A stretch of 32,000 bases of DNA from Candidatus Omnitrophota bacterium. Its GTDB lineage: Bacteria > Omnitrophota > Gorgyraeia > Zapsychrales > JANLHA01. The DNA lies in assembly GCA_963662715.1 (NCBI GenBank), contig OY759724.1:1230001-1262000 (forward strand), read 5' to 3'. Positions 1 through 32,000 of this stretch are shown here, one piece after another. The translations under genes and the position numbers were made by a program. The first letter of the stretch is position 1. Every line of letters begins with the position of its first letter. The notes beneath the pieces were generated by a model, which saw only the letters and a list, made by a program, of their open reading frames with translations, had not been told where the DNA came from and ran no database searches.

Positions 1-860
1 AGACGAAGTATTCATAACCGCGGACCTGGCTGAGCGTCTTGCCGTCGTTATAAGAATACTGCAGGACAGGCAAGACCTTATCGGCGTCTGTTCCGAACAC
101 TTCGGCGATGCTTGACTTGATATCCTCCGGATTGACAATCAGGCGGATCTCTGTTTCATCGGTATACGGCTCGGCCCAGCCTCTCGCCAGCAATTTCTCT
201 GAAATTTCTTCCCAGTCAAGGCCTTCTTCTCTCTCGACCTGCTGCTGTGTCAGGACCTGCGGATCGACGATCTTGACCGTCATCTGCTCACCTCTTCCGC
301 CGGTCAGGATGAACTTCCGGCCGTCATTGCCCAGGACATCTCTCCGGTAATAATCTTCCTCCTCGGTCGGAGAACGGAAAACCCGGACTTCTTTCAAGCC
401 GTTGCCGTCCTTGAACACGATCGTTCCCGGATTGATTCCGACTCTCAGATCAACTTCAATATCTTCCCCGTTATTGACCTTGAGCTTGTGTCCTTCCAGC
501 CACAGGACATTAATACCGAAATCTTTGTTGGCATAAAGCGTGGCGATATCGCGGCCGCGGCTGTCATTCGGAGTCAGGTAATGGTAAAGCTGCTTACCTG
601 TCTTGTCCGGATTATATCGCGGCCGGCCCAGCAGAGGCAGGAGCGTCTTGGCATCCGCACCGAACACTTCCGTCATCTCCGCTCTCACGTCATTCAGGTT
701 GACGATCAGGTGAATCTCCTCAAGGCCTGTGCGCTGAGCCCACCCGTTGTGGAGCAGTTTTTCGGAGACATCGCTCCAGTCAAGCTCGGCTCTCTCGATC
801 TGATTTTTGGTCAGATAACCGTTCTCAAGGATAACCGGTGTTTCCTCAACGATATCAAAC
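1..860 (-). repeat. Diverged tandem duplication of a ~188-aa module (period about 565 bp); the second copy runs off the window
   Basis: ELDWSDVSEKLLHNGWAQRTGLEEIHLIVNLNDVRAEMTEVFGADAKTLLPLL (about 795-640) matches GLDWEEISEKLLARGWAEPYTDETEIRLIVNPEDIKSSIAEVFGTDADKVLPVL (about 230-75). Confidence 0.7.
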
Positions 861-3800
861 AATGTCGCGCGGGAAATACCCATCTTGGCCAGATGCTGCC
901 AGAGATAAGCATTTTCAAGTCCGAAGCGGACGAGCGCTGTTCTGTTGTAGGATCTTTCCATTTCCTCATTAAACAACGCCTCTGCCTGTACCTTCAGGCC
1001 AAGCGCTTCAGCCTCTTCAATACTTAACGTTCTGAAGAATGTTTCTATCTGATATTCAACCCGCTCTTCCGCTTTCTCTCCCGCAGGCCCTTCAATTCTG
1101 GTAATCACGTCATCGAGCTTCACGGACCGTTTCACTTCACCCGTTCTCTCATCAAACTCAAGACCCACGATAATTTCCACCAGGTCTCTTTCAAGATTAT
1201 CCGGGTTCTGGGCCGGGACAGCTTCTTCCCTGACCGTAATGATCTTTCTCTTCACCGGATCATGCGGGATTCGGTATGTCGTGGTTCGGACATTGTCAAC
1301 CGTTGTCTCTGTCGAAACCTCAAAGATCAGATCCGACAAATCATCCACTTTACTGAACCGGGACATATCAAGGTTCAGCAAGGCTTCTCTGACCAAATCA
1401 TGCTGGATAAGAGCGGCGAAATCGATCTGCTGAATATCTCCGGCCCTGACACGGCCCCTATTTTCCGTATCCCAGACTTTGACCCAGCCTGAACCGTTCG
1501 CGCGGATCTCAACCTCGCTGGTCTCATGCTTGCCTGTCGGAGAATATTCTTTTCTTTCCTGGATTCTGAAGATGCTCTTTTCACCCGCCCGCTCACCAAG
1601 CTGTTCGTTTTTGTCAGAATCCTTAACCAAGGCGAAGAGCTGTTCCTGATTTTCAAAGTTCTCCGGAATCTGGATAGACCCGATCTGTTCTACCATAATC
1701 TTGCCCTTAACGATTTCTCTGCGTGTGACAAGAGCGCTTCCGCCGAGTTTCTCCTGGTCTCTCAGGTTAATGAATGTCTGGACGCGGTTCTCCCTGGTTC
1801 CGGTATAGCTGTAAACTCCCGTGACATTTTCGACTTCAACCTCTGTGCCGTCTGCCTGACGGACCGTTACGGTGAGACCTGTCTCTTTCTTGTAATCCGT
1901 GGAATAAAGCTCTTCGCCCGTTTCCGGATCAAAATAACGGATCTCTTCGCGCTCAGGATCTGTGCTCTGCAGCAGTTCGCCCTGGGCATTGTACACGTCA
2001 TATCTTTCCGTATCAGCCGCGAAATCTCTGACCGTGACATATCTGTTGCCTTCGGCGTCAACACGAGTTGTCAGAGATTCTCCGATGACCGGGCCTGTTA
2101 TGTCGACTGTTCCGTCAGCATTGACCTCATAGTCATCCAGCCAGTAAACCTTGCCGACGTTTTCGGAATCAAAGATTTCAATCTTCGACTCTTCCTGATC
2201 CACGGCCAGGTACAAGCGGGCGCCCCTGTTTCCTGGGAGGGTAACGTCAAGCACGCCGAACTTGTTCACGTATCTTGCGTTCCAGCGGGCCTTTTCATAA
2301 TTGGCGACATCCATCAATTCATCCATGGTCATGGACATGGCCGTGTTATCCTGATCCGTGAAGAAGAATTCCGTCTGCTGTCTCTCTGCCACCATGTCTT
2401 CGCCGGCAAAGCTGTAGTCCACAATACCTCTCGTCATGATGTCAGCATCTTTCATCGATTCGATTCTTTCGCTCAAACCGCTCAACCGCTCTTCGGAAGC
2501 CCCTCTCTGTGTTTCTGCGACACGCTTACGTTCTTCTAAGACTTTCTTCTGCAATTCAAGCGCCGTATCTCCTCGATCCTCTTCCGGCGAATTATACGGA
2601 TCAACAAAGAGGCTGATAATCCATTCAATGAAGTCCATGAAGCGGTCCAGCAGGGACGGATTCCTGTCTACGGCGGCTGCTTCTGCGGCAAGCCGTTCTT
2701 CCGTTTCTTTCGCGATCCGCTCTTCGATCTCGGCGATTTCGGCTTCCAGTTCGCGGATTCTTTCAGTATATTCCTCAATTTCTTTCTGGGCTTCTTCCGC
2801 CTGTGCCGTCAAGACCGGCAACATATCAATGACCACCGTTGACTTCAGAGCCCTGAGCTCTTCACTGATATATCCGTCTTCCTGTGAATAGTACTGGATG
2901 GTTTCTGATTCCAGACGGCCTTCATACTGACCGGTCAGATATTGCGGTGAATAATACGGATAACCTGCGCCTTCATACTCAAGGTGCTGATCTGTCGTTC
3001 TGTATCTGTCAGAGTGATCCAGCGTCATCAGTCTTTCATATCTCTCATTGCTGATGATCTGGTAATCGAACAAGGTGCCCTGCCGCAGGATTCTCACCCA
3101 GTTGCCGCTCAACCGGAACTGTTTGACTTCGTCTTTATAATCCTGGCTCAGTTCGATGACAATGCGTCGGTTGCCGGCGATATCGACAAACGTGTCGGCC
3201 TCGCGGGTATCCGGCGTTGCCAGACGTGACAGCATGCGCGGTCCGCCGAACCTGGACAAGGACCACTGCAAAGTCCACTTAGACCCGTATTTATCCATGA
3301 ACGATGTCAACCGCTCCTTGATTTCCCCGGCCGATAAGTCAACGGCTTTGTCTTCGCCGGCCTCACGGAGGAGTTCGCTCAAGAAGCTTATGGTCTCGGC
3401 ATTGAAGGACACCGTCTCGATATAGGAGGCGATGTTCTCGCGGTCAACCGCAAAGATATCTTTCAGCATCTCGACCTGGTCTTTTGCCGCGAAGAGCGTT
3501 CCGTGACCGTTGCCCATCGGAATACCGAATTTATCTGAAGAAATTTCTTCGAACAGATCTTTTCCGGAAACATCTTCGCTGCTCCTTGCCGCCCCGAACT
3601 CGATGATAGCGCCGTCATATTCTCCGCCGACAACCACAAGTTTGCGCAATTCTTTACCGTCTTCGTCATAACGTCCTAACGGAACGAAATCTATGGTTCC
3701 GTTAGCCAGGTTGGAATCCGTTAACTCAAGCAGCGTTGCCAACGTTAAGCTGAACGAACCTGTTCCTTTTAACCGTAATGCGCCAATGTTGCCTTCGATG

Positions 3801-6800
3801 ACGGCCCCGTCATAAATTCCGCCTCTCACGACCGTTCTGGTTACGCTTTCTCCGTTAACCGTAACGCTCTCGGTCTCAAGATAGCCGTTGCTCTTATCCC
3901 CATCCGCCAGGATTTCCAGGATGTCCTTCGTCAATCTCACCGGCTCGGCATTCTCCAGCATCAACATATGAGAACTGCTTAACAATTCGAGCTCTCTCCT
4001 CATCGTCATTAAGTTGTCGTCCACAAACACGGCCTGGTTGTATCCTTCCGGCATCTCATTTCTCGTGTCTTCGCTGAGATCTTCGAAGTCTTGCGGCAAT
4101 ATGACGCGGGCCTTGCCCTCTTTCAGGTCAACCTTATACTCTACTGTCTCGCCGGCTCCGTTGACGTAGGTCGCCTTCATGTAGAAGGTCACCTGCTCTG
4201 TCTCTTCATTGATCGTACGGAAAATACCCACAGCATTAAACTGTTCTCTATAGTCTTCATAAGTGTCTCTGATGGACAAGCCGTAAGAGAGATCTGCTTC
4301 TGGGATGGCAAACAGCGGCGTACCGTCCACTAATTTTGCAACGCCGCCGAGGGTTTCCGCCGTAAAGGCCTCGATACCGCGGTCGACCAGATCAGCGCTC
4401 GGGATCACCACATCGCCTTGCGGAGTAATGGAAAGGAGGATATTGCTGTACACCGACTTCCGGCTCTTGATCAATATCCCTTCGATTTCTTCGAATTGAT
4501 CCTCTTCCAGACCCGGGAACCATGCCTTGAATTCCGCATCCAGCTCTTCGAATTCCGGAGCCACCCGCATGGCTTCCGATACATAGCCTTTCTCGATGAG
4601 TCTCGGAATAATCGTTGCCGCATCAAGCCCGGCTCTTTCAAACGGCTGGGCTGTCAGGATGCCGCGGCCGGAGCTCAAGGTCATCTCACCCGTGCCGTTG
4701 AGGTAGCTGCCGAAGATCTCTTCATCATCCTCGTTGAATCCGGTGGCCACGCCCAGCAACCGTTTATTTTCTTTATCCTGATCTTCAATATCCTTGCCTT
4801 TGATGAGCCGTCTTAACTGCTCCCAGGCGACAGAAACAAAATCATATTTAAGGTTGGCAGACGGCTCACCGGTTGTGGAATATCGCGCTTCATATTCAAG
4901 TTCTTTCGTAATGTTTCTCCGGACACTGGCGGTCGCGCCGTAATCGCCGTACTGGTTCACGAAGGCTCCAAGGCTGATGCCCTTCTTGCTATACTGCACG
5001 CCATATGTTTCAAGATCATTTTCCCTCTGGTAGTAACCGGAGAACGGCCCGACGTTGCTTCTCAGGCTTAACCGGTCAGAATCGCCGAAGGCCTGATCCA
5101 CGGACATGCTGAAAGTCTTCCAGCTGTATGTGGCCCCTAAGAGCGCGTAATACCGAGTGTAATCCTCCCAGAGGTCATGGACGAAACCGTCGCTTTCTTC
5201 CCTGACCCCGGAAACGCGTACGCTGAACTGATGTGCGCTATTCTCATTTGTCAAAGCCTGCTCGATTGTGATCTTCTGGTAATTGACCTTGTCATCAACG
5301 CCGAACGTGAGATCTTGTTCATCGATCGCCGTTTGCCCGGTCAGCGGATCAACGATATAAACATCTCCCACCTCGGCTCTGTATCCATCTATGTACCCGG
5401 CTTCGGCGCTGATGGTCGTCTTGTTTATCTTGACTTCGACATACCCTTCGACACCTTTGGTTTCCATCTCTTCGCCTTCAACATTGAATTTCCAGAACGG
5501 AGCGAGACCGGCATAGACTTCCGCGTCGCCGACTTCCGTACGGTAAGCCAGGACGTCCACCAGGAGGATAGCGGATTCTTCCTGATCCTCACCGTCATCC
5601 GGGTCGGCGGCGTTCTGCAGGTAACGGTAAGATTCTGTATAACCGACGGAGAGGTTATGGCTAAACGTCGTATTGTCTGCGCCGGAGAGGTCAACGCTCG
5701 CCCGGACGTAGCGGTTTTCAGGAGCGTTTTCGTTCTGAGCCTGGAAGGTTCCGGCTTCCAAATCTACGCCCGGAACGGCATTATGAACCGAGAACTGCTG
5801 GAAGGTGACGGTGGCTTCACCGTTGAGGTTGACCACGTCAATCGTGCCGGACTGAATCACCGGCTGGCCGTTGACCATGGCCACGCGGCCGTAAAGTTTC
5901 TTGTTCACGAACACTTCATCGCCAATCTTGATCACCGGCGGCGGTGAACGCGTCATGCGGGCGATGAAGTTGTTGATGGCTCTAACATGTATTTCTTTGT
6001 CTTCAACGCTCTCTGAACTCTCTTCAACAGCTTTGATTAGGTACTGTCTCAAGGCGACCAATTGATCGTTATAGTCATTCGCCGCATCGGCAACGGCATT
6101 AACCTGCCTCTTCGCGTCGAGTTTAAGCTGTTCATAATCCTCCTCAGCCTCCGCCAGCTTGTTGGCTTCTCTGAGATTGGTGATCTCAGCCTGAATCATC
6201 GGCAGCAAGCCGGCCGTCATCATATCAAAGGCAGGATCGCGTCCTTCTCCTGTTCTCTCATCAACAGCTTTTAACGAAGCCAGGGCGTTCTCGGCTTCTC
6301 TGTCCAGGACATCGCCGATTTCCTCACCGGCGCCTTCCTTGAAGTACTGGCCATTAGCGATTAACGTGTTGATCTCTTCTACGATCCTCAACCGCTCCGT
6401 CAAGATAGCCTGGTTCGCTTCAAAGAAGGCGATCTTGCGCTCAATAATCTGATCCACCGTCTCACTGGACCGACCTTCCTGCAGGGCCAGATCTCTTTCG
6501 ACCTGTCTGTGAACACCGTAGTCCGGATTGTCATGGAAAGCTCTTTCCTGGGACAAGGTCGGGATAAACTCGTTCACGAATTGTGTGGTGGCTTCGCTGA
6601 GAGGCCCGGGTCCGCGGTCGCCGTTGTAAGCCACGACTGTTGACAAGTATGTCTCTGCTTCCGCCGTACGGCTGTATCGGCCCATGGTCTCTTTGGCCCG
6701 CGGCTGGTCATCATCAATATGCCAGTATGTCTTAACTTCCTCAATCGTCTTGACCTTTTCAGGATCTTGTCCTGCCTTGCGCTTAATCGGGATAATGAAG

Positions 6801-9800
6801 AATTCATCGGTGAAATCAACGACATTCAGTTCGATCGACCTCCGGAGCAGGGATTGTTTTTCTCTGAGGAGGCCAGCTTCTGTTTCCGCTAATTCACGGC
6901 GGCGGTCTAACATGCTGGTGACTGTTTCGGCGGCAATATTTCCTCCCTGATCGCTGATCTCATAAAGTCTCTGATAGTAGCGCAGTTCTTGCAGGTTCCG
7001 GTTGGCTAAGACCAGCTCTCTGCGGGTGGCGGACAACCAATCATTGATCAGCGCATTATAATCGCTTTGGCCTCTCGTATCCCGCTCTAAGCTTTCCAGC
7101 TGCTCGATACCTTCTTCCAGGCGCTGGATATACCCCATTCTCTCAATGTCATCCTTGCCATGAGCTCTATCATATAAGCCGTCATCGCCGGTAATGCCTT
7201 TGGATCTGTCTCCGTAATACTGGATGCCTTCCCAAATTTCTTCGCGTTTCGGCAAGAGGTTCTCGAAATCTCTTTCATCCCACAAGGCCTCTATGGCAAC
7301 CAGACGGCCGGGTTTCGGATTGCCTTCGTCGTCATATTCGATTTCTCCCGTGATAGGATCTAACTCATACGGCCCTTCAATGGACTGAATCTGATAGCCC
7401 GCTCGTGTAATGGACAGGTTAACAGCCGCTTTCCAGCCTTCTGTGTCACCTTCCTCCGGCAGGTTGCCTTCGGAATCTCTTTCTCCCAACCCTAAGCCCT
7501 GGGCGGCCAAGACCATGTTCTCGGAAACGCCGTTCTGCAAGTTGCGCAAAGTCGTCAAAGCATCGGCGATATCAGCCAAATCTGTTCTTAAATCTTCAGC
7601 CGTTTCTACGCCGAACAGCGAGCCTGTGCCTCGCTCACGGTATTCGTTGATCACATCCGTCAAGACCTTAACCACATCACCGTCTTCTTCCTCGATCTTT
7701 TCTCTTAATTCGGCAAAGTATTTCTCACCGCTGACGTCGTTAGGATCTTCGGAAAGGGCGATCATTCTCAAATATTTCTCCAAGGCTGTCCCTTCAATCA
7801 GCTTGAAGTCTTGTTCCGCTCCGCTCTGCAGGAAGCTCTTCCAGGCGGCTAACCGCTGCTGGACAACGTCATCGTCTCTTTCAACCATTTGTTTCTCAAG
7901 CTCCTGCAGTTCATTGTCCAGCGTCCCCAACATGGCATTCAGTTCATCGACCAGGCCTTCCTGGCTGTCTCTGGCCTCGGTGAGCTTCGCTATGATCTCA
8001 TTCAGAGCCGTATCCTCGCTATCGAGTTTTAACAGGGTCGCCAGTCTCTGGATGTTCTGAATATCGGCCTGAGAATACTTCACCTGGTCAAAAGCGGATA
8101 ACTCTGTATTCACTTCCGGTTCGGAAACCGGCAGTTCAACGCCGTCTTCGACATCCATGATCGGAGTGCGGTCTGTATACTGATATGTTCCATCGGCATT
8201 CTGGACAGCGACCAGGTTGCCTCTGTCAGCCAGTTCATTGTAAACCTTGGTGAATCCTGGACCGTATTCGAATACGCTGACGTTTCCTGTACGGCGGTTG
8301 ATCAGCAGGGTGTTCGGCAGCACGTCGTCCGCCTGGTACTCGATAATCTTTCTGGCCACTTCTGTCTGGCCGTCCTGCTTGGTCCACTGCATCAGCAGAG
8401 ACATATATTCATCCTGCTCGCGGCTGATATAGTCGTTGACGATTTCCTGTTCGTTGAAGATATAGCGTGAACCTTCTCTCGGGTTGGATACCGAATGAAC
8501 CATGCCCACCGGAACGCCTCTTTCCGGTCTCAAGAAGAGGACGCCGACCTCACCCTTGATGGTTCTCTTATCCTGTAATGTCCAGTATTGTGTGCTGACT
8601 CTGTCTTCCTCTTCCCTCAAGGAGACGACCTCGTTGTCAAGCTGGGCACCGCCGATAACCAGTTTTCTGTACGGCGGCAGGCGGGTCTTCTTCACAACCT
8701 CGTCCGCCGCATACTTAATGGCGCCCTTCTCTAAGTTCGTTAATATCGACTCGTTGGTGACTGTGCTTTCCGGAATAGCGATCAACATTTCCGAGAACTC
8801 TTTATCACGCACAATCAGAATGGTCTGATTCTCTGAGGCCTCAACGATCTCGGAAGAGTTTTCAATTCTTAACGGATCGGTTACGCGGACGTTAACGATA
8901 CGGGCCGGTTCCGTCATTTGGTCCGTCGGATCAAAGACCACCATATCGATGCGTTCGCCGATTTCGGCCGGGATACGACCTAAGATGGCATCGACTTCCC
9001 TGCGGCTTAAGTCGGCGGCATTGTACTGGATTCTTTCACCCCGGTTGTTCAGATATCCGCTTTCTTCGATCTCGTTCAAAATGGTGTTGTAGATGATCTT
9101 GGTCTGTCCGTTCACATCGGCTGTGAGCGTTCCTTCTTCAATATCCAGGAGTTGATCCTGCGTCAGCTGGTCTGTCCTCAGATAATTTCCTTCGGTGTCA
9201 TAAACAGCCATCAAGGCCGCAATATCATCTGCCGGATTCGTATGCATCCAGAGGTTCAGTTCAGCCGGCTCGGCTCCGAAGATCACGATCGGATGGACAT
9301 AGCGGACTTCTTTTTCTCCATTATCTCCGCCTTCACCGCCGTCCGAACCGCCGATTTCGTTGATGATAAAGTGCGGATCAATTGCGACTTCAACCGGGTT
9401 GCGGCCTAAGTAGTAGGTCATGCCGTCACGCTCAAACAGTTTGTTCGGCAGCACGGCCGGCAGGTTCTCTTCGAAATAATGCTCGGCAATGATTTCCAGT
9501 GTCACCGGGTTGATGCTGACAGCCACCGGACGGGTCTCTTTGTTCTTGCCGAACATCGCCTCAAAGAGTCTCTGGTTAAAGACCTCGGACGGCAAGACAT
9601 ACATTTCGCCTTGCTCTCTGTACGGGAAGCGGTTGACCGGATCTTCCATGAAGGCTTTCGTGACCGGGGTCTTCGCTTCCTTCAGAGCCGCGGATGTCTC
9701 TTGCAGGGTTTCTTCCAGCTCTGCCCTTTCAGTCTCATCTGTTGTCTGGCTCAACTGGGCCTGTATCTGGACAATCTCTTCCTGCAATTCTTCAACGGCT

Positions 9801-21800: not shown

Positions 21801-24800
21801 ACACCAAATACATCACTTGATTGTGTACTAGCCTTCTCATCATTAGACACAGCATTCGATTCGCTTCCAAGCGTTGATACACCTTCATCATCACTTGTAG
21901 TCGTATCTTCAACAACGCTAACGATAAGTACAGAGCGATTAGTCCATTTGCTGCCGTACGTTCTAAGGATCGTTACAACACGATTCGTATACTGCTTCAA
22001 CCAAGCACTAACTTTCATCAGGGCCGATCTAACAGCCACGAATATTCCTTCAGCTACCTTGAATGGCTCTTCAAGGTTGTAGCTGGCTGTAGGCACAGCT
22101 TCCGGTAATGTACTTCTTCTAGACCCGTTACCAGACTCAGATCTAGCAATTCCCTGAATCAATCCGGACAATAGAGCCATAACTGCCTTGGCTATGCCTC
22201 CGAAGAGTATAGACCAATCAATTGCAGCTATACCACTAATACCAGATGTTCTCAAAGAACCGGCATTGGCGTATGTTCCACCTACACCTCTCGTGTTAAC
22301 GCCTCCACGATTGGCGCTCACCCATCGAGTCTCTAACTCATCCTCGGCTTTTTGTGTTGCTGCCGAGAGAACTGTACTACTCGTCTCAACATTGACGATT
22401 GCACTGCTTACACCGTTCGCGTTATCGTCACCGCGACTGGCGTTTCTCACCCAATTAGTTTTTAACTCTGGTGTCACCGCTGTCGAAGCAGCCGTGATCA
22501 CACGAGCCGATTCAGCGATTGTACTGCTCACACCAGCAGCTACGCTAGTTCTGGTGGCGTGTTTCTCCCTTACTTCTGTCTTCGCCTCTGATGTGGCCGA
22601 TGCGACAACCACACGAGCCGATTCAGCGATTGTACTGCTCACACCAGCAGCTACGCTAGTTCTGGTGGCGTGTTTCTCCCTTACTTCTGTCTTCGCCTCT
22701 GATGTGGCCGATGCGACAACCACACGAGCCGATTCAGCGATTGTACTGCTCACACCAGCAGCTACGCTAGTTCTGGTGGCGTGTTTCTCCCTTACTTCTG
22801 TCTTCGCCTCTGATGTGGCCGATGCGACAACCACACGAGCCGATTCAGCGATTGTACTGCTCACACCAGCAGCTACGCTAGTTCTGGTGGCGTGTTTCTC
22901 CCTTACTTCTGTCTTCGCCTCTGATGTGGCCGATGCGACAACCACACGAGCCGATTCAGCGATTGTACTGCTCACACCAGCAGCTACGCTAGTTCTGGTG
23001 GCGTGTTTCTCCCTTACTTCTGTCTTCGCCTCTGATGTGGCCGATGCGACAACCACACGAGCCGATTCAGCGATTGTACTGCTCACACCAGCAGCTACGC
23101 TAGTTCTGGTGGCGTGTTTCTCCCTTACTTCTGTCTTCGCCTCTGATGTGGCCGATGCGACAACCACACGAGCCGATTCAGCGATTGTACTGCTCACACC
23201 AGCAGCTACGCTAGTTCTGGTGGCGTGTTTCTCCCTTACTTCTGTCTTCGCCTCTGATGTGGCCGATGCGACAACCACACGAGCCGATTCAGCGATTGTA
23301 CTGCTCACACCAGCAGCTACGCTAGTTCTGGTGGCGTGTTTCTCCCTTACTTCTGTCTTCGCCTCTGATGTGGCCGATGCGACAACCACACGAGCCGATT
23401 CAGCGATTGTACTGCTCACACCAGCAGTTACGCTAGTTCTGGTGGCGTGTTTCTCCCTTACTTCTGTCTTCGTCTCTGCTGTGGCTGATGCGACAACCAC
23501 ACGAGTCGATTCAACGATTGCACTGCTTACACCGTTCGCGTTATCGTCACCGCGATTGGCGTTTCTCACCCAATTAGTTTTTAACTCTGGTGTTACTGCT
23601 GTCGAAGCAGCCGTATTCACACCAACCTTTGCTATCGTTACAACATATTCAAGTCCTGTCCTCTCTTGAGCAGCTTTTCCTGCCTGAATGCCTGAGGAGG
23701 CATTGGCAGCGGCCCACGGCGTGGGACTAGAGCCAGAACTTCTAAAATTCTTTTTGGCTCCTTTGTCTATACTTAAATCTATGTGTTGCCGTTCTGCTTG
23801 CGGATCAACAATTGGTGCGCTGGCAACAGAAGCTTTATTAGCATTCATATTTCTGGCATAGGCGATAACCAAAGCTGTCTTGGCTTTTGCCGTTCCTGTA
23901 GCTCCGGCAGTTCCTCCGCCAGGAGCCGGCTCTTCAACAGGAGCAGGAGAACTAAACGGTGAACTTGTAATAGGAACACCTTTGGTTCCGCTATCCTTTC
24001 GGCCTTCTATAGGATTATGTTGATTGGACGGAAGAGACAACTTCCCAAGACTGAACGCTGCTATAGGCAATGCAGGGATAAATATTGGAGAAGACGGCAC
24101 AGCTTGCACAGGTAATTGCGGCGGTGCAACAGGCTCTGTAACAACAACTGGCGGTGCTAGCGGCTGTTCTTCCGGAGGCGCACGAGAAGCTTCCGTTAAT
24201 ACGGTTTCTTCCGGTTTAGAAAGGTCTTCCTGTTTAGCCACTTGCCCTGATACCTTATCCTGAATTGTTATCCCTGAAGCATCGGCAGGTTTCTCTGCTT
24301 GGGCCTTGTCCACTTTTGCCACTTCAATAACTTCTTCCTGGGCTCCTTCTTTAATTTCACTGCCGAACAAGAAGGCAAAGGCATCTTTAAGTTGTCCCCA
24401 CAAGCTCTCTGAGGACTCTTCGCCAACGAGAGCAACCAAATCTTCCTTAGTTTTAATTTTACGCAACTGATTAAGCGATTTTTCTAATATTGGATAGCCG
24501 TCTTCTGAAATTGTACGCTGTCCTTCCTGCTGTGCGGCATTGATAACAGCGTCCATCTCTTTGGCAAGCAACTGTCTTTCTGCCTGATCCTGAATTGACT
24601 GAGACATGACGGCCTTTATAACATCAAATGCTTTTCTGTTATCGACTGACAACTTCTCAATTTGCTGAATAACTGGTGAAGCCTGCGCAAGGCGCGGAAC
24701 CTCTGTAACCGTACCTGGTTGGTCTTTGGCTGTGGTAGAAGCTTTTGCAATTTCAACATATTTGGTTTGACTCTTTAACTTCTGACCATACGGAGTTCTT

Positions 24801-27800
24801 AATTCAGGCAAATTCATAGGGCTGGATAAAGCAACTATGATCGTTTCTGGAGTCTTTGATGGCGACTCGGACGGGAGATCTCCCGCGGATTCCTGAGTCG
24901 CTGATTCTGCCGGATTCATGATAATCATTGAAGACATCATCAGCAGACCACCAGATTTCACCTTTTGCTTTTGGGCTGCAATTCTTTTTGTTCTTGACGC
25001 CGTCCATTTCTGCTCCATAGCATTGGAAGGCAGATTCTGCGCCGGGGTCCTGGCTGGCTGAATCCTCACATAAGGTTTGGCAACTTGTGCAGGGGCAGAA
25101 GGACGAGTGATCTCTTGCTGTGTTGACTGAATAACCCGTGCATTCTTACTGGTCATCAACTCATCAACCGTAAATGACTTCACATTACCGTCTCTCATCT
25201 CCAGGCTGGCAAGTCTAACCTCCTGATCACTGCCAGGTGCCTTAAACTTAACCTGAGAAACGATCTTTCCAACCTCACTTATATTGTTTTGCCCGGACAA
25301 CTCTACCGTCTTACCCACCTGAGAAGGCTGCCCTTTAAATTCTTCTGTTATTATCGGACTGGCAACTGCAGCTAAAGCCATTTCTTCGCCAGCCGTGGCC
25401 GTCGTAGTAGTAGGACTAGGAAGAATGGCAGGAGGCATAGCAGCGGCTACGGATATTTCTTCTCTAGACGAAGCCGCCGACTCAACTTTTCCTCTGGAAG
25501 CAGCTGACGGCGTTTGAGCTAATAAGCCCATTGACGGCATAGTGGTCGCATCCATTCCAGGCAGCAATGGCAAGACTGTAGCCGGTGCGGCCGGAACAGC
25601 GGCTGGCGTTGATGCCGGCTGTTCAATAACAGTCGTTTCAGCCACCTGCTCTTTACGTGTTGTTATGCCTCGATCAATCGCAATATCAAACTGATACTGT
25701 TCAATATCCGACTTGCGGGTCGAAGCGACAACAATTTGCTCACCCGTCAAAGTTGTATACAGAATAGGGATGTCTTTCAGCTTGAATTGATCTTTTTCTA
25801 TTGACTTAAGGTCTCTGGCGAGGATCTTTCCAACCTTATTCGTCACGGCGACAACAAAGACGCCAAAAGCATCTTTAACCTCTAATTCCCTGGCTTGAGA
25901 TTCTTCAATAAATGCCCTGTACATACCCAAAGGATCGGAAATGCTCAAGTTATGCTTCCTGGCTTCGGCTATTCTCTGGTTCTGTGTCGCGACGTACTCC
26001 GGACCTATAATCAAGTAGGTCTGGCCTTTATTGTTCTTAATGATCCTGATTCCCTTAGGTTCAACGAAATAATTAAAATCATCGATCTTCACAAAGTCAA
26101 TTTGAATGTTCTCTTCCATCGCCAACTGTCTTGTCAAGGCTTCTAAATAATCTCCCATACTAAAGTCGGCGCCAGGAATGATATTGTCAAAGTCAACACG
26201 TTTATCAAATCTTACTGGTTTAAATACCGGTTTCTCGTTATCCACACTAACCATGACCATCTTTTCAGAATAGATCAATTGATTTCCGTTTACCGGCACG
26301 GCCAATTCCATTTCCTCGTCAAATTTAGCCCAAGCCAAATATCGAGTATTTCCTAAATGAACGGAAACCGGCAGCCATTTCTCTCCAGATGTTTTATCAA
26401 GGTATATATCCGCTGTTTTATCTGCCTCTATCAAGTATAAATTCCTGCGCTGGATATCACTCAATCCGGCAATAATCCGGCCTACTTCTATAATATTCAC
26501 GCCCTTGAATTCCATCTGCTGACGTCTCACCCGCCCTGTAGCATCGACGAACCGGACAAAATTCTTTTCGATATAGGCCCTGTCCCCGTCAGGCAAGCGA
26601 ACGACTGTAACCGCTTCCGGATCAATTCGATTTCGAGCAATAGTCTCAGCCCGCGTCTTCTCCATGGCTATAACAATATTTTCACGGCTGTCAACGATAA
26701 GGGACGTCGTTTCTATTTCTTTAGGATTATTTACCAAAGCTTGCGTCAACAATATTGTCTTTGGCTCCCCTCGCTTATTAATATCTGTTAACAAAATTTT
26801 TGCCGGAAGATTCATGTCTGAAGGAACAATCTGAATCCGGCTAATCTGTGATAAATCAGAAATATCAACCGATTTCGCCAAAGACACCAAAACACTCTCA
26901 ACCTGTTCTTGGGCGGAGAAATCACGTTTATCATAAGCAATCAATGTCGGGCTATCTGATTTGATCTGGCCTTCGGAGATTAAATCATGTTCTTTTAATA
27001 CCGCCCCAACGTCAACCGTACGATATTCTGAGCGTAAGGAATGGGAATACTTGCCTGTTTTCATGGCAATGGCGATACGATCTGTCTTTTCGATCTCCGG
27101 AATTTCTTTCTGTTCTCCCAAAATCGGATTAGAAACCACCCTGCGGAACGTCTCTTCCGGAATCAAAACAGTTCTGGTGTTCTCTGTTTCATCCGTAAGA
27201 TACAGTCTTGACTCCAAACCTTTACCCCGGATAATCTTAACGTGAGTTGTTCCTTCCTTGAACTCCGGATAGCTTCCCATAAGATCTAGGAGGCCCATCT
27301 TCTCAGAAACCGACAAATTGGCAGAATAGATAACCGAGGCATCTGATGCCTTTTCTTGGGTCAATGGGCTGGATAATGATGCTATCTCGAGGATTTCTCC
27401 CTGAACAAGCTGAAGTTTCTCGGTTGTCGGGAAAAGATGCTCGACCAGATCATTGTCCAAATAAGGCTTACGACCGACAATGTATTTTCTTAAATCTTCT
27501 GCTGACGGCTTCAAAGTCTGAGCATTCCCCAAGAGAACAACAGGGAAGTTACGCGGTAACTGATCAAACGGCAGTCTTTCTGATATAATTTCTCCATCCA
27601 AGCTCTTGTGATAAGCCACAAACGGTGTTTTTCTTGCCGCTTGAAGGGTTTGCATCAAATTTCTTACCAAAACGATATCATAATCGTCCAATTGAGGAAC
27701 CGCTTTTAAGAGCTTGTCCAGCCTGTTAATCGTTGCGGGTTTCTCCATCATAAGCATGGATATCTGCTGAATCGAATCCTGGGATAAGCTCATTCCTAAT

Positions 27801-30800
27801 TGGGTGGTAATGCGTTCCACTTCCAGGGCTTCCAGCGTCGGGACATAGACATAAACCGGTCTTGAAGTGTCAGTGACTGTTTTACGCGCCGAGGCTAACA
27901 ATTCAGGAAGAGTCTTATCTTCTTCAAAAAGAACAACCGATTTATTGGCATCATGAGCTAATCTCACTTTTTCTTCTAACGAAGCAGCCTTCTGGTGAAT
28001 TGTACCGCTTGTAATATCCCAGAAAGATAAATTCTCCGATTCTATTTCTCTCTCCAAATCTTTCTCAGTCGGCTCATAATAACCGTCTATCGGGGATGAA
28101 CTTGCCTGTGCCAAATCTGTAGCCGCAGAAGTTGAAACTTCTCTATTCGCCATAGGGCCGCCGCTAAAGGCAGGCAAAAGAATCGGTGCAGACAAAACAG
28201 GTAACGGCGCCGTAAGAGGAGCACTCACCGGTAATTCCACGGCCTGTTCCGGAGCCTTCGGAGACGGAAGGACATCCTCTCCTTCCGCGGAAGCGGCCTT
28301 TTTCATCTGTCCGCCGTGATCAACGACAGTGGCGGAAACCATCAACAATCCACCTTTTTTCTCCGGTTTTGGCATAGAAGCAAATTGAATCTCCGGTTTC
28401 GTAAGATTCAAATTACGCACAGGAGAAGGTGTCGGACGAATGCTGCTGCCGTCAATGGCATTAGAAGCAAGTTGTGTTAATCCCTGCTTTATTGTTTCCC
28501 CGGCAGACTTCTTCAACATTTCAGCTCTTATAGCTCCTGTCTTCTCTGCTGATTCAACGACAGGAGAGGACAATGTTGGGAATGTCGGGGCCGTGATCGT
28601 CGGAGCCACAGGGGCTGTTACAGACGGAGCTGCGACCATTTGCACCGGCTTTTCTGCAGACAGGGCTTGTGTCTGTGTTTCTTTAACAAGCGATGAAGAG
28701 ACAGACACCATGCCACCCGGCTGAGTCTGTGCAGCTTCAGGCTGCTTCAAAACAGATGAAGAGACAGTCATCATGCCGCCGGCTTGCGTTTCTGTCATGG
28801 TCATAGGCGACGGTTTAATCACCGACGAAGATACCTGCATCATGCCGCCCCGTTTTTCCGGTTTTGTCACCTGCTGACTTGTTTTAAGCGAAATGTCTCT
28901 GTTCCGGCTTGTTGTGTCGACCTTGGCAAGTTCCACCGGTTTGCTGCCCGGTAAAGCCGTTTCAAATGCTGGCAAGACCGCCGGGCTTGATATAGACGGA
29001 ACAGACGGAGCAACGGTTACAGGAGAAGCGGCAACAGCTGTTACCGGCTTCATTTCCGGTTTCTCAACAACAGATGAAGAAACTGTCATCATGCCGCCGG
29101 CTTGCGTTTCTGTCATAGTCATAGGCGACGGCTGAATAACCGACGAAGACACCTGCATCATGCCGCCGGCTTGCGTTTCTGTCATGGTCATAGGCGACGG
29201 CTGAATAACCGATGAAGACACCTGCATCATGCCGCCCGGCTGTGCTTGGGCCATAGCCACCGGCGACGGCTGAATAACCGACGAAGACACCTGCAGCATG
29301 CCACCACGTTTAGCCGGTTTCTTTGTGAATTGTATTTCTTCTCTAGATAAAGATCTCTGGCGTGAAGTTGTGTCAACTTTTGCCAGTTCCACAGTCTTTC
29401 TTCCTGGCTGAATATCTTTGCTTAACGGAGATGACGTCATAAGAGGCATCGGCATCGTCGTCGGAAGAGTAACAGCCGGGGCTTGCGGCGTCGCCACAAC
29501 AGGAGAAGCAGAAACCTCTACGGTTCTAGGTGCTTCAAGGGACGGAGCCTTAATGACAGCCGTCGAATCCTTCTTCACAACCGTTGAAGAAACGGTCATC
29601 AATCCGCCGGCCTGAGTTTCTGTCTTGGCCATAGGTGACGGCTTGATAACAGCAGACGATACCTGCATCATGCCGCCCGGCTGAGCTTGGGCCATAGCCA
29701 CCGGCGACGGCTTAATCACTGATGAAGACACCTGCATCATACCGCCTCGTCTGGAAATATTCTTAGGAGATAGAGCATAGCCCCGTTCCTGAGCTGTCAG
29801 CGGCATGGACCACCGTAACGGGCTGCTGGAACTGCTGCTGCCCTTCGGTTGAGACAAGGAGGCCAGCAAAGCTTCCTTAGCTTGTTTAGGAACATAGGCT
29901 TTTAACGGCGCGTTCATCTTCTGCGCCCAAATAATTCTATTATTGCCGTCGTACGCCGTTCCGTCACCGTTTAACGCCACGGGATCCTGCACCATAACGG
30001 CCATGATCGCCCTTTCTGTGCGATAAGGACTAAGGTTTGACATCTTCGGAGAAAGGTTCTGCACCTGCTCTGGAGTCAAGGTGACCAATTCGTCATATTT
30101 TGCCGGCGGCTGCACATCGAAAATAACTTCTCCCTGTGCCTGCGTCCTGATTTCAGAAGCAATCTGCGGATTCTCCTTCATTATTTCGGAAATCTTGGAA
30201 ACCAAGACAGCTTCTTGCGGCTGGGAAGCGGCGTTCATGGACCCCGTCAAAGCCCTGAGATCGGAATAATTGATATCTTTCGCATCTTTAGCAACAACAG
30301 AGGAAACTCTCTCCGGCAGTTCAATCGGAGAAGAAGAAGGCTTTTCTGTTAAGTCATAGGATTTCGCCATGAATTCACTGTTCGGCATTTCAACAAACTT
30401 CTTTAAAGCTTTTTCATAATCATGATCCAGGTCCCCCCGGTTTTCCACAACCATAACACCGAGGACCTTCTCCTCTTCAAGCACTCTGAAGACAACCCTT
30501 TGATTCCCCAGCCTGAGTTTATTAAGACCTTTTAAGGCCTGGTTGTATTCAAATTTAGACGGTTCCGGGCTCTCGAGGAAAGTTGTAAAGGAATCTGATA
30601 ATCTGCTTTGGACTTGATTGAGCTTGGCCTTCCTGACGTCCTTCAACACGCGGACAGTATAGCCTTTAACATTTACCGGCTGAGCGGCTGCGGCCACTTC
30701 GGCCGATGAAGAACCTTCAGTTCCTTCCCGTTTAGCGGCAAATTCTTTCTTTGACAGGCCCCAGCGCTGCAGATTATTCATAACCCGATGACGTGTCGAA

Positions 30801-32000
30801 CCTGTCATGCTCTGTGTGAGGTCAATCAAATCTTCATACAGCTTAACTTCACCCTGGTCTACAGAATCTTGAATTAAATCTTTGATATCATCAAAAGCCG
30901 CGCTTTCCTTGGCGTCCACAACAGCGCTGTCCGGAATCGGCATAATCTCCTGCTCCGGAGCGAGACTCTGTTCGGCAACCCGTAAAACCGGTTTAATTTC
31001 AGCATCAAATATTTCCTGTGCTTCTGACTTGGTGATCTTGGCAACGTCCGCCATGCGGGGCAGGGTAATATTAACATTATCGTCCTGCAATTTCACATAG
31101 GCGGCAGCCAAAGCCTGTCCTTTGGGAGAAATCCTTAAGGCATCGCCATACTGAACGACATCCTGAGGTGCTGATATGTAATTCTCTTGAATATAGGTCT
31201 TGGCCCTGGCCATTTCAGATCTGGCTTCAATGGATTTCTTCGGGCTGTTCTGGGTTTCACGGCTGTATGACAAGAGTAGATCAATAAACTTCTTAGGCTC
31301 AGTTCTTAAATCTGTCCGATCCAGTTCCTCCAGGATATCCGCTGCCTTAACGCTGACTCTTCCTCTGCCTTTGGTTAACTGAGCTTTAAACGGTTCGGCC
31401 TTCTTGACCGGACTGGACGTCGTGGCATTAACCACCGCGGATTGTGTCCCGTAATTCTCCGTGAGAATCTGCTGGAATTTAACCCGGTCGCTTGCGCGTA
31501 AAGAAATGATCTCATTACCGAATTTTTCAATCGTCTCAGCATCATCACTGTAAACCTTGACCCTGTTGCCGCGGGAAGTGACGGTAGGCGGAATACTCTG
31601 TTCCACTTTGGCTAATTTATCAACCGTAGGAATGAGTTCTCCGGCTGTCTGACCATCCAAATCAGAATCAACAACATTTGCCGTTAACCGGACCTTAGCA
31701 TCAACATCTATATTCTGATTAATTTCCTGCTCAACGGCATCAACGAAAGCCACAAAATCTTCTTCTTTTAAGTCGCGGTTAATGCCCTTGGGGATAACCA
31801 AATAGAAATTGTCCGGCGGGCCGCGAACCAAGCGCACGCCTCTGAGGTTTTGAGACTTTAATACTTTATTATAGGCTTCTGCCGAGGTCAGGATGACATT
31901 ATTCGCCAGTTCATGATCAGAGAATTCATTAATTACCTTAAATCCGAATTCCCCGTTATCATTTCCGCGCAAAGCATCGACAGTAAACTTGCCGGTGGCT
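1..32000 (-). CDS. Internal fragment of one giant ORF (10,666 complete codons, neither start nor stop in window). It encodes a multidomain membrane-associated protein with a peptidoglycan-hydrolase module and several in-frame tandem repeat arrays.
   Basis: The frame has codons at + coordinates 3n+2..3n+4, read from 31999 down to 2. I scanned the 60-nt lines by hand and found no tta/cta/tca (reverse complements of TAA/TAG/TGA) at a position equal to 2 mod 3. Interior copies of the three arrays were covered by the argument that their periods of 87, 111 and 615 bp are multiples of 3. The same frame gives canonical M23 and SLT motifs, hydrophobic helices and all the repeat peptides. None of the 12 minus-strand ORFs in the track is in this frame. 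The frame is missing from the track because it never closes. It reads ATGKFTVDALRGNDNGEFGFKVINEF at the 32000 end and NDGKTLSQVRGYEYFV at the 1 end. Confidence 0.92.
2440..2850 (-). other. Coiled-coil-like helical segment
   Basis: Translation gives AQAEEAQKEIEEYTERIRELEAEIAEIEERIAKETEERLAAEAAAV ... ALELQKKVLEERKRVAETQRGASEERLSGLSERIESM. Confidence 0.5.
4850..5950 (-). other. Beta-rich, aromatic-rich region with alternating polar/apolar strands (OMP-barrel-like character)
   Basis: Explicit translation of 5160->4862 gives TRYYALLGATYSWKTFSMSVDQAFGDSDRLSLRSNVGPFSGYYQRENDLETYGVQYSKKGISLGAFVNQYGDYGATASVRRNITKELEYEARYSTTGEP. Sequence of the same style continues upstream to about 5950. Confidence 0.35.
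5990..8060 (-). other. Alpha-helical / coiled-coil-rich region
   Basis: Long E/K/R/L/Q-rich stretches are present. Examples are QELEKQMVERDDDVVQQRLAAWKSFLQ, RRRELAETEAGLLREKQSLLRRSIELN and NLREANKLAEAEEDYEQLKLDAKRQVNAVADAANDYNDQLVALRQYL. No heptad analysis was run. Confidence 0.5.
11030..11290 (-). other. Domain: degenerate M23-like / barrel-sandwich domain lacking the metal-binding histidines
   Basis: Explicit translation gives RSYMDGTVISVEPGPFGEEIIIESETVEEGSGKTVKVQQIFGHLTGTNVNLVGQEIKAGTILGLAGTFRTETTAQSEYV. The M23 scaffold pattern is kept (G.V..V, Y/F.HL, V..G..V..G..IG..G). The HLHFE position reads SEYVFKL, and no HxxxD motif is seen upstream. Confidence 0.45.
12150..12560 (-). other. Domain: soluble lytic transglycosylase (SLT / GH23-like) within the giant ORF
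   Basis: Explicit translation of 12496->12422 gives ESRFKPRAVSRAGATGIMQIMPGTW, which contains the catalytic Glu-Ser and the GxxQ.MP.TW signature. Translation of 12240->12182 gives YTLAGYNAGPGYSAGYYPRV, which contains the AYNAGPG-type motif. Confidence 0.88.
12870..13200 (-). other. Domain: M23 (LytM/lysostaphin-type) zinc metallopeptidase, with catalytic motifs present
   Basis: Translation gives RIGSVNGHGGIDILLPEDVELKSPVSGRVIH...FFIFFHLNDYEVEEGDKVEAGEVFALSGKTGNAETTVAHVHMEI. The HxxxD motif (HGGID) has His at 13163-13165 and Asp at 13151-13153. The HxH motif (HVH) lies at 12893-12901. Confidence 0.82.
14160..15380 (-). other. Cluster of hydrophobic, predicted transmembrane helices (roughly 6-9 by eye)
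   Basis: Translated segments include LLIHAGIAAAGIALVPTMAGSLIAIFGVSSLIMAGLALFV, IALVSLAAGAVVGALFMPLTLTAVATTAFWI, AIFGYLAPYLVKVVWNFFW and LLAWLVSAFPVPFGIVRFAV. Further segments are MLLISGVIGHALVISIFGM and ALTGFWLGVPLATVFYLGYLPVFLM. The helices are separated by charged loops. Confidence 0.7.
16215..18036 (-). repeat. In-frame tandem repeat, 87 bp (29 aa) x about 21 copies; peptide unit GKVKEFMARDYRKTVEHLTAAWTALRSVP
   Basis: The period of 87 bp was counted directly. The antisense + ORF 15986..18232 shows 21 ERCPG..ARY(T/A)S units. Copies differ at only a few positions. Confidence 0.97.
18090..18290 (-). other. Hydrophobic helix pair (predicted TM hairpin) immediately N-terminal to the 29-aa repeat array
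   Basis: Translation gives FRAAATGTIKSAILYLIVSYGLGKGLTVGLPVVAKTVPVVATTVGAVWPVLLIIPGLMLGARVY. Confidence 0.6.
19475..20948 (-). repeat. In-frame tandem repeat, 615 bp (205 aa) x about 2.4 near-identical copies
   Basis: The identical 80-aa antisense ORFs at 19901..20143 and 20516..20758 are 615 bp apart. Copy junctions fall near 19475, 20090 and 20705, and the third copy diverges at about 20948. The unit peptide includes ...IGQAVSTVEAYEESAEGVLSSIAELLRAWIAKAIEVISGSEDVLRRVLRVLPVGIKVSAAEDKALADELDLRIAQANRVV.... Confidence 0.93.
20949..21700 (-). repeat. Diverged relatives of the 615-bp unit (degenerate repeats)
   Basis: The stretch 21175-21270 (ttatcctcagcagcacctacttctatataagcag...gcaccgcttattgcttcaac) is recognisably similar to ttatcctcagcagcgcttacctttatacctacagg...gaaccacttatcacctcgatcgc in the 615-bp unit. 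This was aligned by eye only. Confidence 0.45.
22386..23617 (-). repeat. In-frame tandem repeat, 111 bp (37 aa). Nine core copies lie at 22500-23498, eight of them apparently identical, bracketed by two diverged units of the same family.
   Basis: The string acacgagccg recurs at 22500, 22611 and so on, giving a period of 111. The core peptide is VVVASATSEAKTEVREKHATRTSVAAGVSSTIAESAR by explicit translation. The flanking units (22386-22495 and 23511-23617) are about 95 percent identical to each other. Both encode ...NWVRNANRGDDNANGVSSAIVES.... Confidence 0.95.
23870..24310 (-). other. P/A/S/T/G-rich low-complexity linker
   Basis: Translation includes SRAPPEEQPLAPPVVVTEPVAPPQLPVQAVPSSPIFIPALP and ITSSPFSSPAPVEEPAPGGGTAGATGTAKAKT. 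Confidence 0.7.
25370..25650 (-). other. P/A/T/S-rich low-complexity linker
   Basis: Translation includes IEQPASTPAAVPAAPATVLPLLPGMDATTMPSMGLLAQTPSAAS and AAAMPPAILPSPTTTTATAGEE. Confidence 0.7.
28690..29760 (-). repeat. Three clusters of 69-bp (23-aa) modules; unit peptide GGMMQVSSSVIQPSPMTMTETQA, separated by P/S/T/V-rich spacers
   Basis: The string ggcgacgg recurs at 29124 and 29193, giving a period of 69. Explicit translation of 29220->29102 gives SSSVIQPSPMTMTETQAGGMMQVSSSVIQPSPMTMTETQ. The clusters lie at about 29590-29760, 29060-29310 and 28690-28850. Confidence 0.85.

Follow-up and report, generated by a model that had tools for sequence, protein, structure and literature searches.

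An internal 32-kb fragment of a giant Omnitrophota-type gene, with a conserved membrane module ahead of cell-wall hydrolase domains

The stretch of DNA described here, referred to at its full length of 32,000 nucleotides (nt) as the window, lies entirely inside one giant protein-coding gene of the Candidatus Omnitrophota type, which is longer than 32 kb and encodes more than 10,666 amino acids (aa). A six-frame stop map recomputed over the window returned no TAA, TAG or TGA among the 10,666 codons of one minus-strand frame (reverse-complement offset 1), whose codons run from position 31999 down to position 2. The other five frames hold 272, 322, 611, 633 and 764 stops, and the longest open stretch in any of them measures 2,247 nt. 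Base composition gives a stop probability per codon of 0.053, or about one stop every ~19 codons, from which the probability of meeting no stop is ~1e-252; shuffling 200 times gave open runs of at most 279 codons. Because TAA, TAG and TGA are all absent, the openness holds under any genetic code, and an explanation by recoded stops was discarded as irrelevant. The fraction of G at the first codon position is 0.33-0.50 in 16 of 16 blocks of 667 codons each, as in coding DNA, and, cysteine apart (0.03%), the amino-acid composition of the translation is ordinary. An earlier sequence-only reading of this DNA had claimed as much, namely a stop-free frame that could hardly arise by chance and a gene that exceeds the window at both ends, and these claims were borne out by the recomputation, the frame being open on either side.

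No other genetic element competes with this frame. Neither a tRNA nor an Rfam family was found in the 32-kb window, and both promoter-like and terminator-like matches are at or under shuffle expectation (for terminator-like sites in positions 1-16000, 6 were found and 16.6 +/- 4.5 expected), which agrees with the statement of the same reading that 32 kb contain no promoter or terminator. It had also warned that the open reading frame (ORF) track hides the gene, and rightly so: the ORF lister skips open-ended ORFs, so the real frame is not displayed, and it returned just eight antisense ORFs of at least 150 aa, the two largest within repeat arrays. These two, of 748 aa (15986-18232, plus strand) and 493 aa (22188-23669, plus strand), exist because the repeat units are without stops in that frame, and a closed-ORF caller would misannotate both.

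Hydropathy analysis (Kyte-Doolittle, scanning width 19) predicted some 10-12 hydrophobic helices in the fragment, of which eight or nine form a cluster at aa 5536-6006. This cluster belongs to a conserved membrane module, and the order along the protein from there on is module, M23 peptidase, SLT lytic transglycosylase with its catalytic glutamate, a degenerate LytM domain and then a further conserved region (Table 1). In an alignment of 16 module copies (alignment A1) the motifs APYLxxVxWNFFW, FPxxxGxxxFxxxR, WHMxxIGxEIxxV and LEGxxGAIxWG were recognised, together with invariant residues that include R5775, E5999 and E6031. The module is common to more than 25 partial giant ORFs, with phmmer E-values of 1e-20 to 1e-65, and two homologues hold two copies each. 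By using alignment A1, AlphaFold2 (AF2) gave a model with a predicted local distance difference test score (pLDDT) of 71 and a predicted template modelling score of 0.68. The best Foldseek E-values for this model were 0.69 in PDB (TM-score at most 0.15) and 0.16 in BFVD, so that neither a PDB nor a viral fold matches it, and the module profile found no match among PDB sequences. None of the 16 module members matches Pfam, NCBIfam provided just one marginal match, and not one of 2.9 million IMG/VR contigs contains the module. In addition, neither of two preprints on giant genes mentions such a module, or M23 (bioRxiv 10.1101/2023.11.21.568195; bioRxiv 10.64898/2026.06.07.730766). For these reasons the module is regarded as an undescribed marker of Omnitrophota giant ORFs; together with the short SSP motif described below, it seems to be one of the two new elements of this gene.

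The enzymes that follow the module are of well-known families. Pfam scans, carried out on four large pieces and on ten sub-segments at E<=0.1, recognise only three domains in the fragment, these being M23, SLT and a second M23-like stretch, and leave ~97% of it without a match. The M23 domain (PF01551) scores 71-74 bits against a gathering cut-off of 28.7, its zinc ligands H6279-GGI-D6283 and H6367-V-H6369 are present, and its matches among PDB sequences are 5kqb (2.9e-10), LytM and lysostaphin. The SLT domain (PF01464) scores 60-61.5 bits against a cut-off of 21.3, carries the motifs E6502-S, GIMQI and AGYNAGPG, and matches MltC and Slt70 in PDB. Sequence searches of PDB over all three thirds of the protein found nothing except these M23 and SLT matches. 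A motif search of the second M23-like domain showed that the HxxxD and HxH motifs are absent from it; it is presumably a degenerate, non-catalytic LytM domain, which by analogy may regulate or bind peptidoglycan.

Table 1. Features of the window and of the encoded protein fragment. The first base of codon i lies at window position 31999 - 3(i - 1).
Feature	Window position	Strand	Basis or remark
Single ORF, piece of a gene for >10,666 aa	2..31999	-	No start or stop inside; codon-position bias in every block
Multi-helix membrane module, ~560 aa, aa ~5540-6100	13700..15382	-	phmmer homology; AF2 all-helical
Peptidase M23 (LytM), aa 6278-6373	12881..13168	-	Pfam 9e-20; intact zinc/catalytic motifs
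SLT lytic transglycosylase, aa 6492-6597	12209..12526	-	Pfam 2.5e-16; catalytic E6502 (YQES)
Second M23-like domain, aa ~6892-6991	11027..11326	-	Second matched stretch of Pfam M23
Region conserved after the hydrolases, aa 7049-7616	9152..10855	-	Common to P0001, P0029, P0038 and P0006
Acidic region without recognisable domain, aa 7617-10666	2..9151	-	D+E 18-21%
Thirteen [S/V]-S-S-P-[I/V/L] motifs	15455..31417	-	13 observed vs 0.5 expected
87-nt (29-aa) array, 20.9 copies, 98% identical	16218..18036	-	Unit GKVKEFMARDYRKTVEHLTAAWTALRSVP; basic, K+R 17-19%
111-nt (37-aa) array, 9.3 copies, 8 DNA-identical	22499..23533	-	Flanked on both sides by direct repeat AVTPELKTNWVRNA..GDDNANGVSSAIV
615-nt (205-aa) repeat, ~2.5 copies, 80-99% identical	19493..21022	-	Inside the GC3 0.28-0.33 island
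Degenerate 23-aa repeats, aa ~746-1112	28664..29764	-	Motif GG[ML][ML]xVSSxV[IV], 9 copies
69-nt array, 3.1 copies	29087-29302	-	Inside the degenerate 23-aa repeat region
Candidate single transmembrane helix, aa 3259-3281	22157..22225	-	Kyte-Doolittle peak 1.91
Hydrophobic helix pair, candidate membrane hairpin, aa 4570-4627	18119..18292	-	Hydrophobicity
Weak RelE/ParE-like domain, aa ~448-535	30395..30658	-	PHROG RelE-like toxin, E 4e-4

Relatives of this core were sought by an exhaustive phmmer search, in which aa 5521-6720 were compared with 1.84 billion representative proteins. It provided 34 matches below 1e-10, the best being P0001 (1.3e-64), followed by P0002, P0004, P0006-P0008, P0010, P0011 and P0013 among the top ones. 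The matches that reach past M23 and SLT all cover the helix cluster at aa ~5540-6100, and they are incomplete proteins of 900-7,848 aa, each taking up its whole contig. Source names are available for 17 homologues, 15 of which come from metagenome-assembled genomes (MAGs) of Candidatus Omnitrophota, all partial. The identity is just 24-34% (34% for the best match, over the core), which means that the window protein has no close relative. Several homologues are nevertheless colinear with it over long distances: P0001 corresponds in order to aa 5558-8157, P0006 to aa 4290-7231 and P0005 to aa 4283-6631, while P0029 and P0038 match aa ~6230-7616. A second route led in the same direction. Scanned with a pattern from a subfamily alignment of the module, 185,579 species genomes yielded eight loci (L001-L008), six of them labelled Omnitrophota, and all eight are open end to end in the module frame, including one of 20.5 kb within a 646.8-kb contig; the module alone is what the window and these loci have in common. 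The collections of genomes, viruses and metagenomes did not contain an exact 45-mer taken from the M23 region, and scanning metagenomes at the protein level gave an unrelated SLT match only. Judged by sequence similarity, relatives of the module with its hydrolase core are found almost only in Omnitrophota giant-ORF fragments. The proposal of the sequence-only reading, a giant gene of the Omnitrophota kind with several membrane helices and cell-wall-degrading domains, thus finds its counterpart in the M23 and SLT domains, the helices and the homologues.

The second apparently new element is a short peptide motif, [S/V]-S-S-P-[I/V/L] (SSP motif), located at aa 195, 556, 725, 856, 1144, 1301, 1543, 2636, 4427, 4482, 5480, 5493 and 5512. 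Its tetrapeptide, S-S-P-[I/V/L] with an S or V before it in most cases, did not reach 13 copies in any of 300 shuffles. All thirteen copies lie N-terminal of the module (P = 4e-4), three of them within 60 residues of it, and the typical spacing is 150-300 residues. The motif is the most over-represented tetrapeptide in several giants with otherwise unrelated sequences, with 20 copies in P0013, 8 in P0023, 7 in P0018, 6 in P0024, 6 in L006 and 4 in P0005, and it is lacking in the giants P0001, P0002, P0022 and P0028. In the giants that bear it the density is 10-25 per 10,000 aa, compared with 0.5 in 117 ordinary proteins, that is, a 20-50 fold enrichment. Six of seven motif-bearing giants carry every copy ahead of the module (20 of 20 in P0013, P = 1e-6), P0023 being the exception. 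The codons at the motif vary freely, so that the signal lies at the peptide level and a nucleotide-level explanation was ruled out. 

The motif is therefore a candidate mark for processing or modification, and the cleavage points of giant proteins were stated to be unknown by West-Roberts and others (West-Roberts et al., bioRxiv 10.1101/2023.11.21.568195). Several homologues have proteases built into them (CPBP, site-2 or archaemetzincin). As a separate observation, proteins P0002, P0008, P0010, P0014 and P0022 carry annotated proteases (CPBP/Rce1-like, site-2 protease, archaemetzincin) near the module, and a 'RAPP' motif precedes P0002-type modules at the place of the 'SSPV' of the window protein. 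A far-reaching version of the processing idea would be that the giants share an undescribed core, made of the ~560-aa module of new fold and of SSP marks, the latter being the places where a giant precursor would be cleaved, within one compartment, into pieces of domain size. The giants would then be polyproteins and not megadalton chains; this version is considered distinctly unlikely.

Besides these elements, the fragment contains tandem arrays, of which four were found (87, 111, 69 and 615 nt) where the sequence-only reading had counted three. All four preserve the reading frame, and self-BLAST of the fragment found no additional divergent internal repeats outside them. Within the 87-nt array the variation amounts to four synonymous sites (two recurrent, two singleton) and four singleton amino-acid changes (S27N, P29L, A21T and R12K), and the first 111-nt copy shows one synonymous and three nonsynonymous differences. 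The repeat polymorphism is mostly synonymous, although when counted by distinct sites the ratio is not significant evidence for selection. The enzyme motifs and transmembrane helices put forward earlier as validation of the frame were found, and the polymorphism put forward beside them is not synonymous-only. A probable role of the near-identical arrays is that of variable-length spacers, and the identity of the 111-nt and 87-nt units suggests recent expansion, or else a copy number that the assembly leaves uncertain. According to Nielsen & Lui, few long genes of Omnitrophota contain exact, back-to-back identical tandem repeats: 17% carry any, and in none do they reach 10% of the coding sequence (bioRxiv 10.64898/2026.06.07.730766). 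Matches of the 29-aa array to Pfam HAAS, to two PHROG families and to NCBIfam SmsB and a chlamydial scaffold family had no single significant stretch and were rejected as artefacts of summing over repeats. The motif of the degenerate 23-aa repeats has two further copies, at aa 1216 and 2350, which brings the total to eleven; it combines a basic patch with two glycines and a hydrophobic strand, as in KRGGMMQVSSSVI. Its double glycine recalls the cleavage sites of C39 peptidases, but the upstream leader consensus is absent.

The G+C content at third codon positions (GC3) changes strongly along the frame. From ~0.49 at the N-terminal end it falls to 0.28-0.33 in two stretches (aa 2500-2800 and aa 3300-4400), rises to 0.63-0.70 within the 87-nt array and is 0.55-0.65 beyond it. 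Such mosaicism within one gene could result from recombination or from acquired cassettes. The low-GC3 stretch (region of window 18800-24500) is rich in Val, Ala, Ser and Glu and has 50% G at the first codon position.

Of the remaining features, the RelE/ParE-like stretch has as its top four PDB sequence matches only E. coli RelE, near full length and at weak E-values of 0.06-0.12, and it has no Pfam match at E<=0.1; the segment ...KLRLGNQRVVFRVLEEEKVLGVMVVENRGDLDHDY can be aligned to E. coli RelE over its full length, with Arg and Tyr positions among those aligned. A possible further hydrophobic helix lies at aa 4228-4248. For the conserved region at aa 7049-7616 no PDB sequence match was found, and an AF2 model made with 5 sequences had a pLDDT of 45 and was not used for fold search. 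Family searches over aa 7617-10666 recognised none. Within this acidic part, aa ~8740-9060 (window 4820-5782) are beta-rich and aromatic-rich, with an alternating hydrophobic pattern and the ending ...NLKYDF, and are reminiscent of an outer-membrane beta-barrel or beta-sandwich; no homologue of this segment was found.

The distribution of charge around the module gives a first indication of how the protein could be placed in the cell. The 1,000 aa ahead of the helix cluster, the 29-aa array included, are basic (K+R 17-19%), and the entire 4,600 aa beyond it are acidic (D+E 18-21%). Long loops rich in K/R (with 7, 11 and 18 K+R) also take turns with short ones of 3-5 residues. According to the positive-inside rule, this alternation and the basic-before, acidic-after charge indicate that the N-proximal flank is probably cytoplasmic and that the protein is exported from the hydrolases onward. 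In the arrangement proposed here, the module would anchor the protein in the cytoplasmic membrane of the producer, the basic stretch ahead of it, with the 29-aa array, would remain in the cytoplasm, and the acidic 4,600 aa past it would be exported, hydrolases first. The M23 domain would cut the peptide cross-links and the SLT domain the glycan strands of peptidoglycan, and in doing so they would locally open or remodel the producer's own sacculus, letting the huge exported part pass and anchor in the envelope. The exported remainder could then serve as a surface coat or as a contact structure for an episymbiotic or predatory lifestyle. Taken as a whole, this reading of a giant Omnitrophota-type gene whose product is anchored by the module, exports its hydrolases and opens its own sacculus is considered fairly probable.

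The evidence for the target of the enzymes is the length of the tether between the module and the first hydrolase, which is 65-130 residues in the homologues and ~180-270 in the window protein. The end of the module and the start of the hydrolase match lie at 1655 and 1774 (M23) in P0001, at 1398 and 1527 (SLT) in P0005, and at 407 and 472 (M23-like) in P0019. A tether of this kind is long enough for the cell's own sacculus and hardly for a neighbouring cell, which favours remodelling of the own sacculus; taken by itself, this identity of the target is held at close to even chances, a shade below them. The same gene and architecture could also be read with the M23/SLT pair as a weapon on or beyond the cell surface that digests the peptidoglycan of bacterial prey or hosts. 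Attachment and cell-wall digestion were indeed proposed for giant proteins, SLT being present in some Archaeovorins (West-Roberts et al., bioRxiv 10.1101/2023.11.21.568195), and in Velamenicoccus archaeovorus peptides of the giant protein were up 3-fold in attached cells (PMC10066038). The catalytic sites of M23 and SLT are both intact, and the ~260 mostly helical, acidic residues between module and M23 could act as a spacer. However, in the homologues the hydrolase begins 65-130 residues past the last membrane helix, too short a distance to span the periplasm and the outer membrane; the sole cultivated relative attacks an archaeon without murein (PMC10066038); and the Pfam scans revealed no adhesion domain in the fragment. 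A weapon against prey walls is for these reasons rated as rather unlikely, though the least unlikely of the rival readings.

Two further explanations concern the nature of the gene itself. Unrelated pieces of giant genes could have been joined by the assembler at the near-identical arrays, or the copy numbers could have been collapsed or expanded: units that are 98-100% identical are classic assembly traps, and the strong GC3 shifts between aa 3300-4400, the 87-nt array and the part after it would fit with joined pieces. Yet P0006 and P0005, which are independent assemblies, cover both flanks of the 87-nt array, where the GC3 step is largest, and the array itself is missing in both; its flanks are therefore neighbours there, and the join is genuine. 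The same unique sequence brackets the 111-nt array on both sides, which makes a misjoin unlikely, the frame stays intact across the four arrays with no stop anywhere, and P0001 is colinear over 2,600 aa downstream. An assembly artefact is accordingly seen as very unlikely. An origin from a phage or mobile element, with an over-sized tape-measure-like or internal virion protein that combines M23, SLT and helices, would be in keeping with PHROG and phage matches to tape measure, lytic tail and internal virion proteins, and with the label 'phage tail tape measure protein' given by the depositor to the homologue P0018. All these matches are nevertheless confined to M23 or SLT, with none on the module or elsewhere; tblastn against 50,697 phages covers M23/SLT only, and tape-measure PHROGs match the M23 stretch only. 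The module is absent from IMG/VR and has no fold match in BFVD, the window holds no phage gene and indeed no other gene in its 32 kb, and the homologues lie in Omnitrophota MAG contigs, one of them of 646.8 kb. With phage similarity limited to M23/SLT and a module without viral counterpart, this reading was rejected as extremely improbable.

Against the proposal of a module-anchored protein that opens its own sacculus, several points have to be weighed. The topology was derived by hand from hydrophobicity and charge, and an odd/even error in the spans would place the hydrolases in the cytoplasm; the spans at 5803-5823 and 5986-6006 are doubtful, and export is the weakest step because the true number of membrane spans is uncertain. 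The choice between own sacculus and prey wall is decided by tether length only, and expression, export and enzyme activity are predictions from the sequence. The window contains no marker gene, so the phylum is tentatively assigned, through homologues of 24-34% identity only. The remaining two of the 17 named homologues are a MAG labelled Pacearchaeota and an entry from a hydrothermal-vent metagenome that bears the name 'tape measure', and one of the eight module loci is labelled Planctomycetia. None of the domains that define the Archaeovorin or Dockerin types occurs in these 10,666 aa. Finally, the number of copies in each array, and three of the four array joins, must be taken as provisional without reads.

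That one ORF fills 32 kb has in itself modest discovery value, as the class already counts thousands. The practical lesson is that pipelines restricted to closed ORFs overlook such genes and report antisense junk in their place. With the module, fragmented giants could be searched for, and structural studies of how megadalton proteins are inserted could gain a target; the SSP motif, given its enrichment and one-sided placement, is a testable candidate for points of cleavage or modification. The close coupling of M23/SLT to the module points to a role in the passage of the protein itself, unlike the prey digestion that is usually assumed.

Giant proteins have been classed as 'large' from 10,000 aa upwards (West-Roberts) or by genes longer than 20 kb (Seymour). 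The type example is the 39,678-aa protein of V. archaeovorus LiM, and giant ORFs occur in 77 of 116 Velamenicoccia species genomes (Seymour et al., PMC10066038). West-Roberts and others described 46 genes longer than 90 kb, the longest encoding 85,804 aa (bioRxiv 10.1101/2023.11.21.568195), and 93.8% of complete Omnitrophota genomes encode one or more proteins of at least 10,000 aa, with 3,650 such proteins listed (Nielsen & Lui, bioRxiv 10.64898/2026.06.07.730766). The earlier view that proteins of this size are extremely rare in prokaryotes thus does not hold within Omnitrophota, tiny bacteria of predatory or episymbiotic habit, even if the gene is extreme by ordinary measures. With its 10,666 codons and multiple transmembrane helices, the window has the size and the helices of an Omnitrophota giant. 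It also shares with them the uninterrupted ORF of more than 30 kb, the few domains, the poor conservation and the in-frame repeats; SLT is among their reported domains, and the homologues of the core are Omnitrophota proteins. It differs in that the best relative of its core is 34% identical and in that M23 is unmentioned for them in either preprint.

Archaeovorin-type proteins are characterized by glycosyl transferases, methyltransferases, glycosyl hydrolases, NUDIX, HEAT, SecA_DEAD/SecA preprotein-binding domains and an N-terminal C39 or S8 peptidase (bioRxiv 10.1101/2023.11.21.568195). Pfam at E<=0.1 found no glycosyl transferase, methyltransferase, glycosyl hydrolase, NUDIX or HEAT domain in the fragment, and these could lie outside the window; SecA_DEAD/SecA preprotein-binding, C39 and S8 have no Pfam or NCBIfam match in the fragment, whose N-terminus lies outside the window. 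The Dockerin-type or tandem-repeat-scaffold giants resemble the window in giant size and internal tandem repeats. No Pfam match to dockerin/EF-hand or thrombospondin type 3 (TSP3) was found in the fragment, and in contrast to those giants it has no dockerin, TSP3, discoidin or lectin repeats and shows novel units of 23, 29, 37 and 205 aa, with three arrays near-identical at the DNA level. As class-defining domains were not seen and may lie outside the fragment, the window is filed under neither type.

The enzymatic part invites comparison with smaller systems. EnvC and NlpD are regulators in E. coli cell division whose degenerate LytM domains lack metal-binding residues, and the second M23-like domain of the window likewise is without the metal-binding HxxxD and HxH. 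Unlike in EnvC and NlpD, this domain is fused in cis to an active-type M23 and SLT, and a regulatory role would be by analogy only. Secretion systems, flagella and phage tape measures use dedicated SLT or M23 enzymes to open the sacculus locally. VirB1 and PrgK of conjugation and type IV secretion systems, FlgJ of the flagellum and the phage tape measure likewise have a lytic transglycosylase and M23 with a membrane-associated tether, and the logic proposed for the window protein would be the same, a local gap in the sacculus through which a large structure can pass. The homology to these machines is limited to the enzyme domains, the module of the window being unrelated to them in sequence and predicted fold, and the window protein is 5-50 times larger. 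Among known systems, the window is therefore a new and very divergent example of the documented Omnitrophota giant ORFs, of a kind that specialists would expect.

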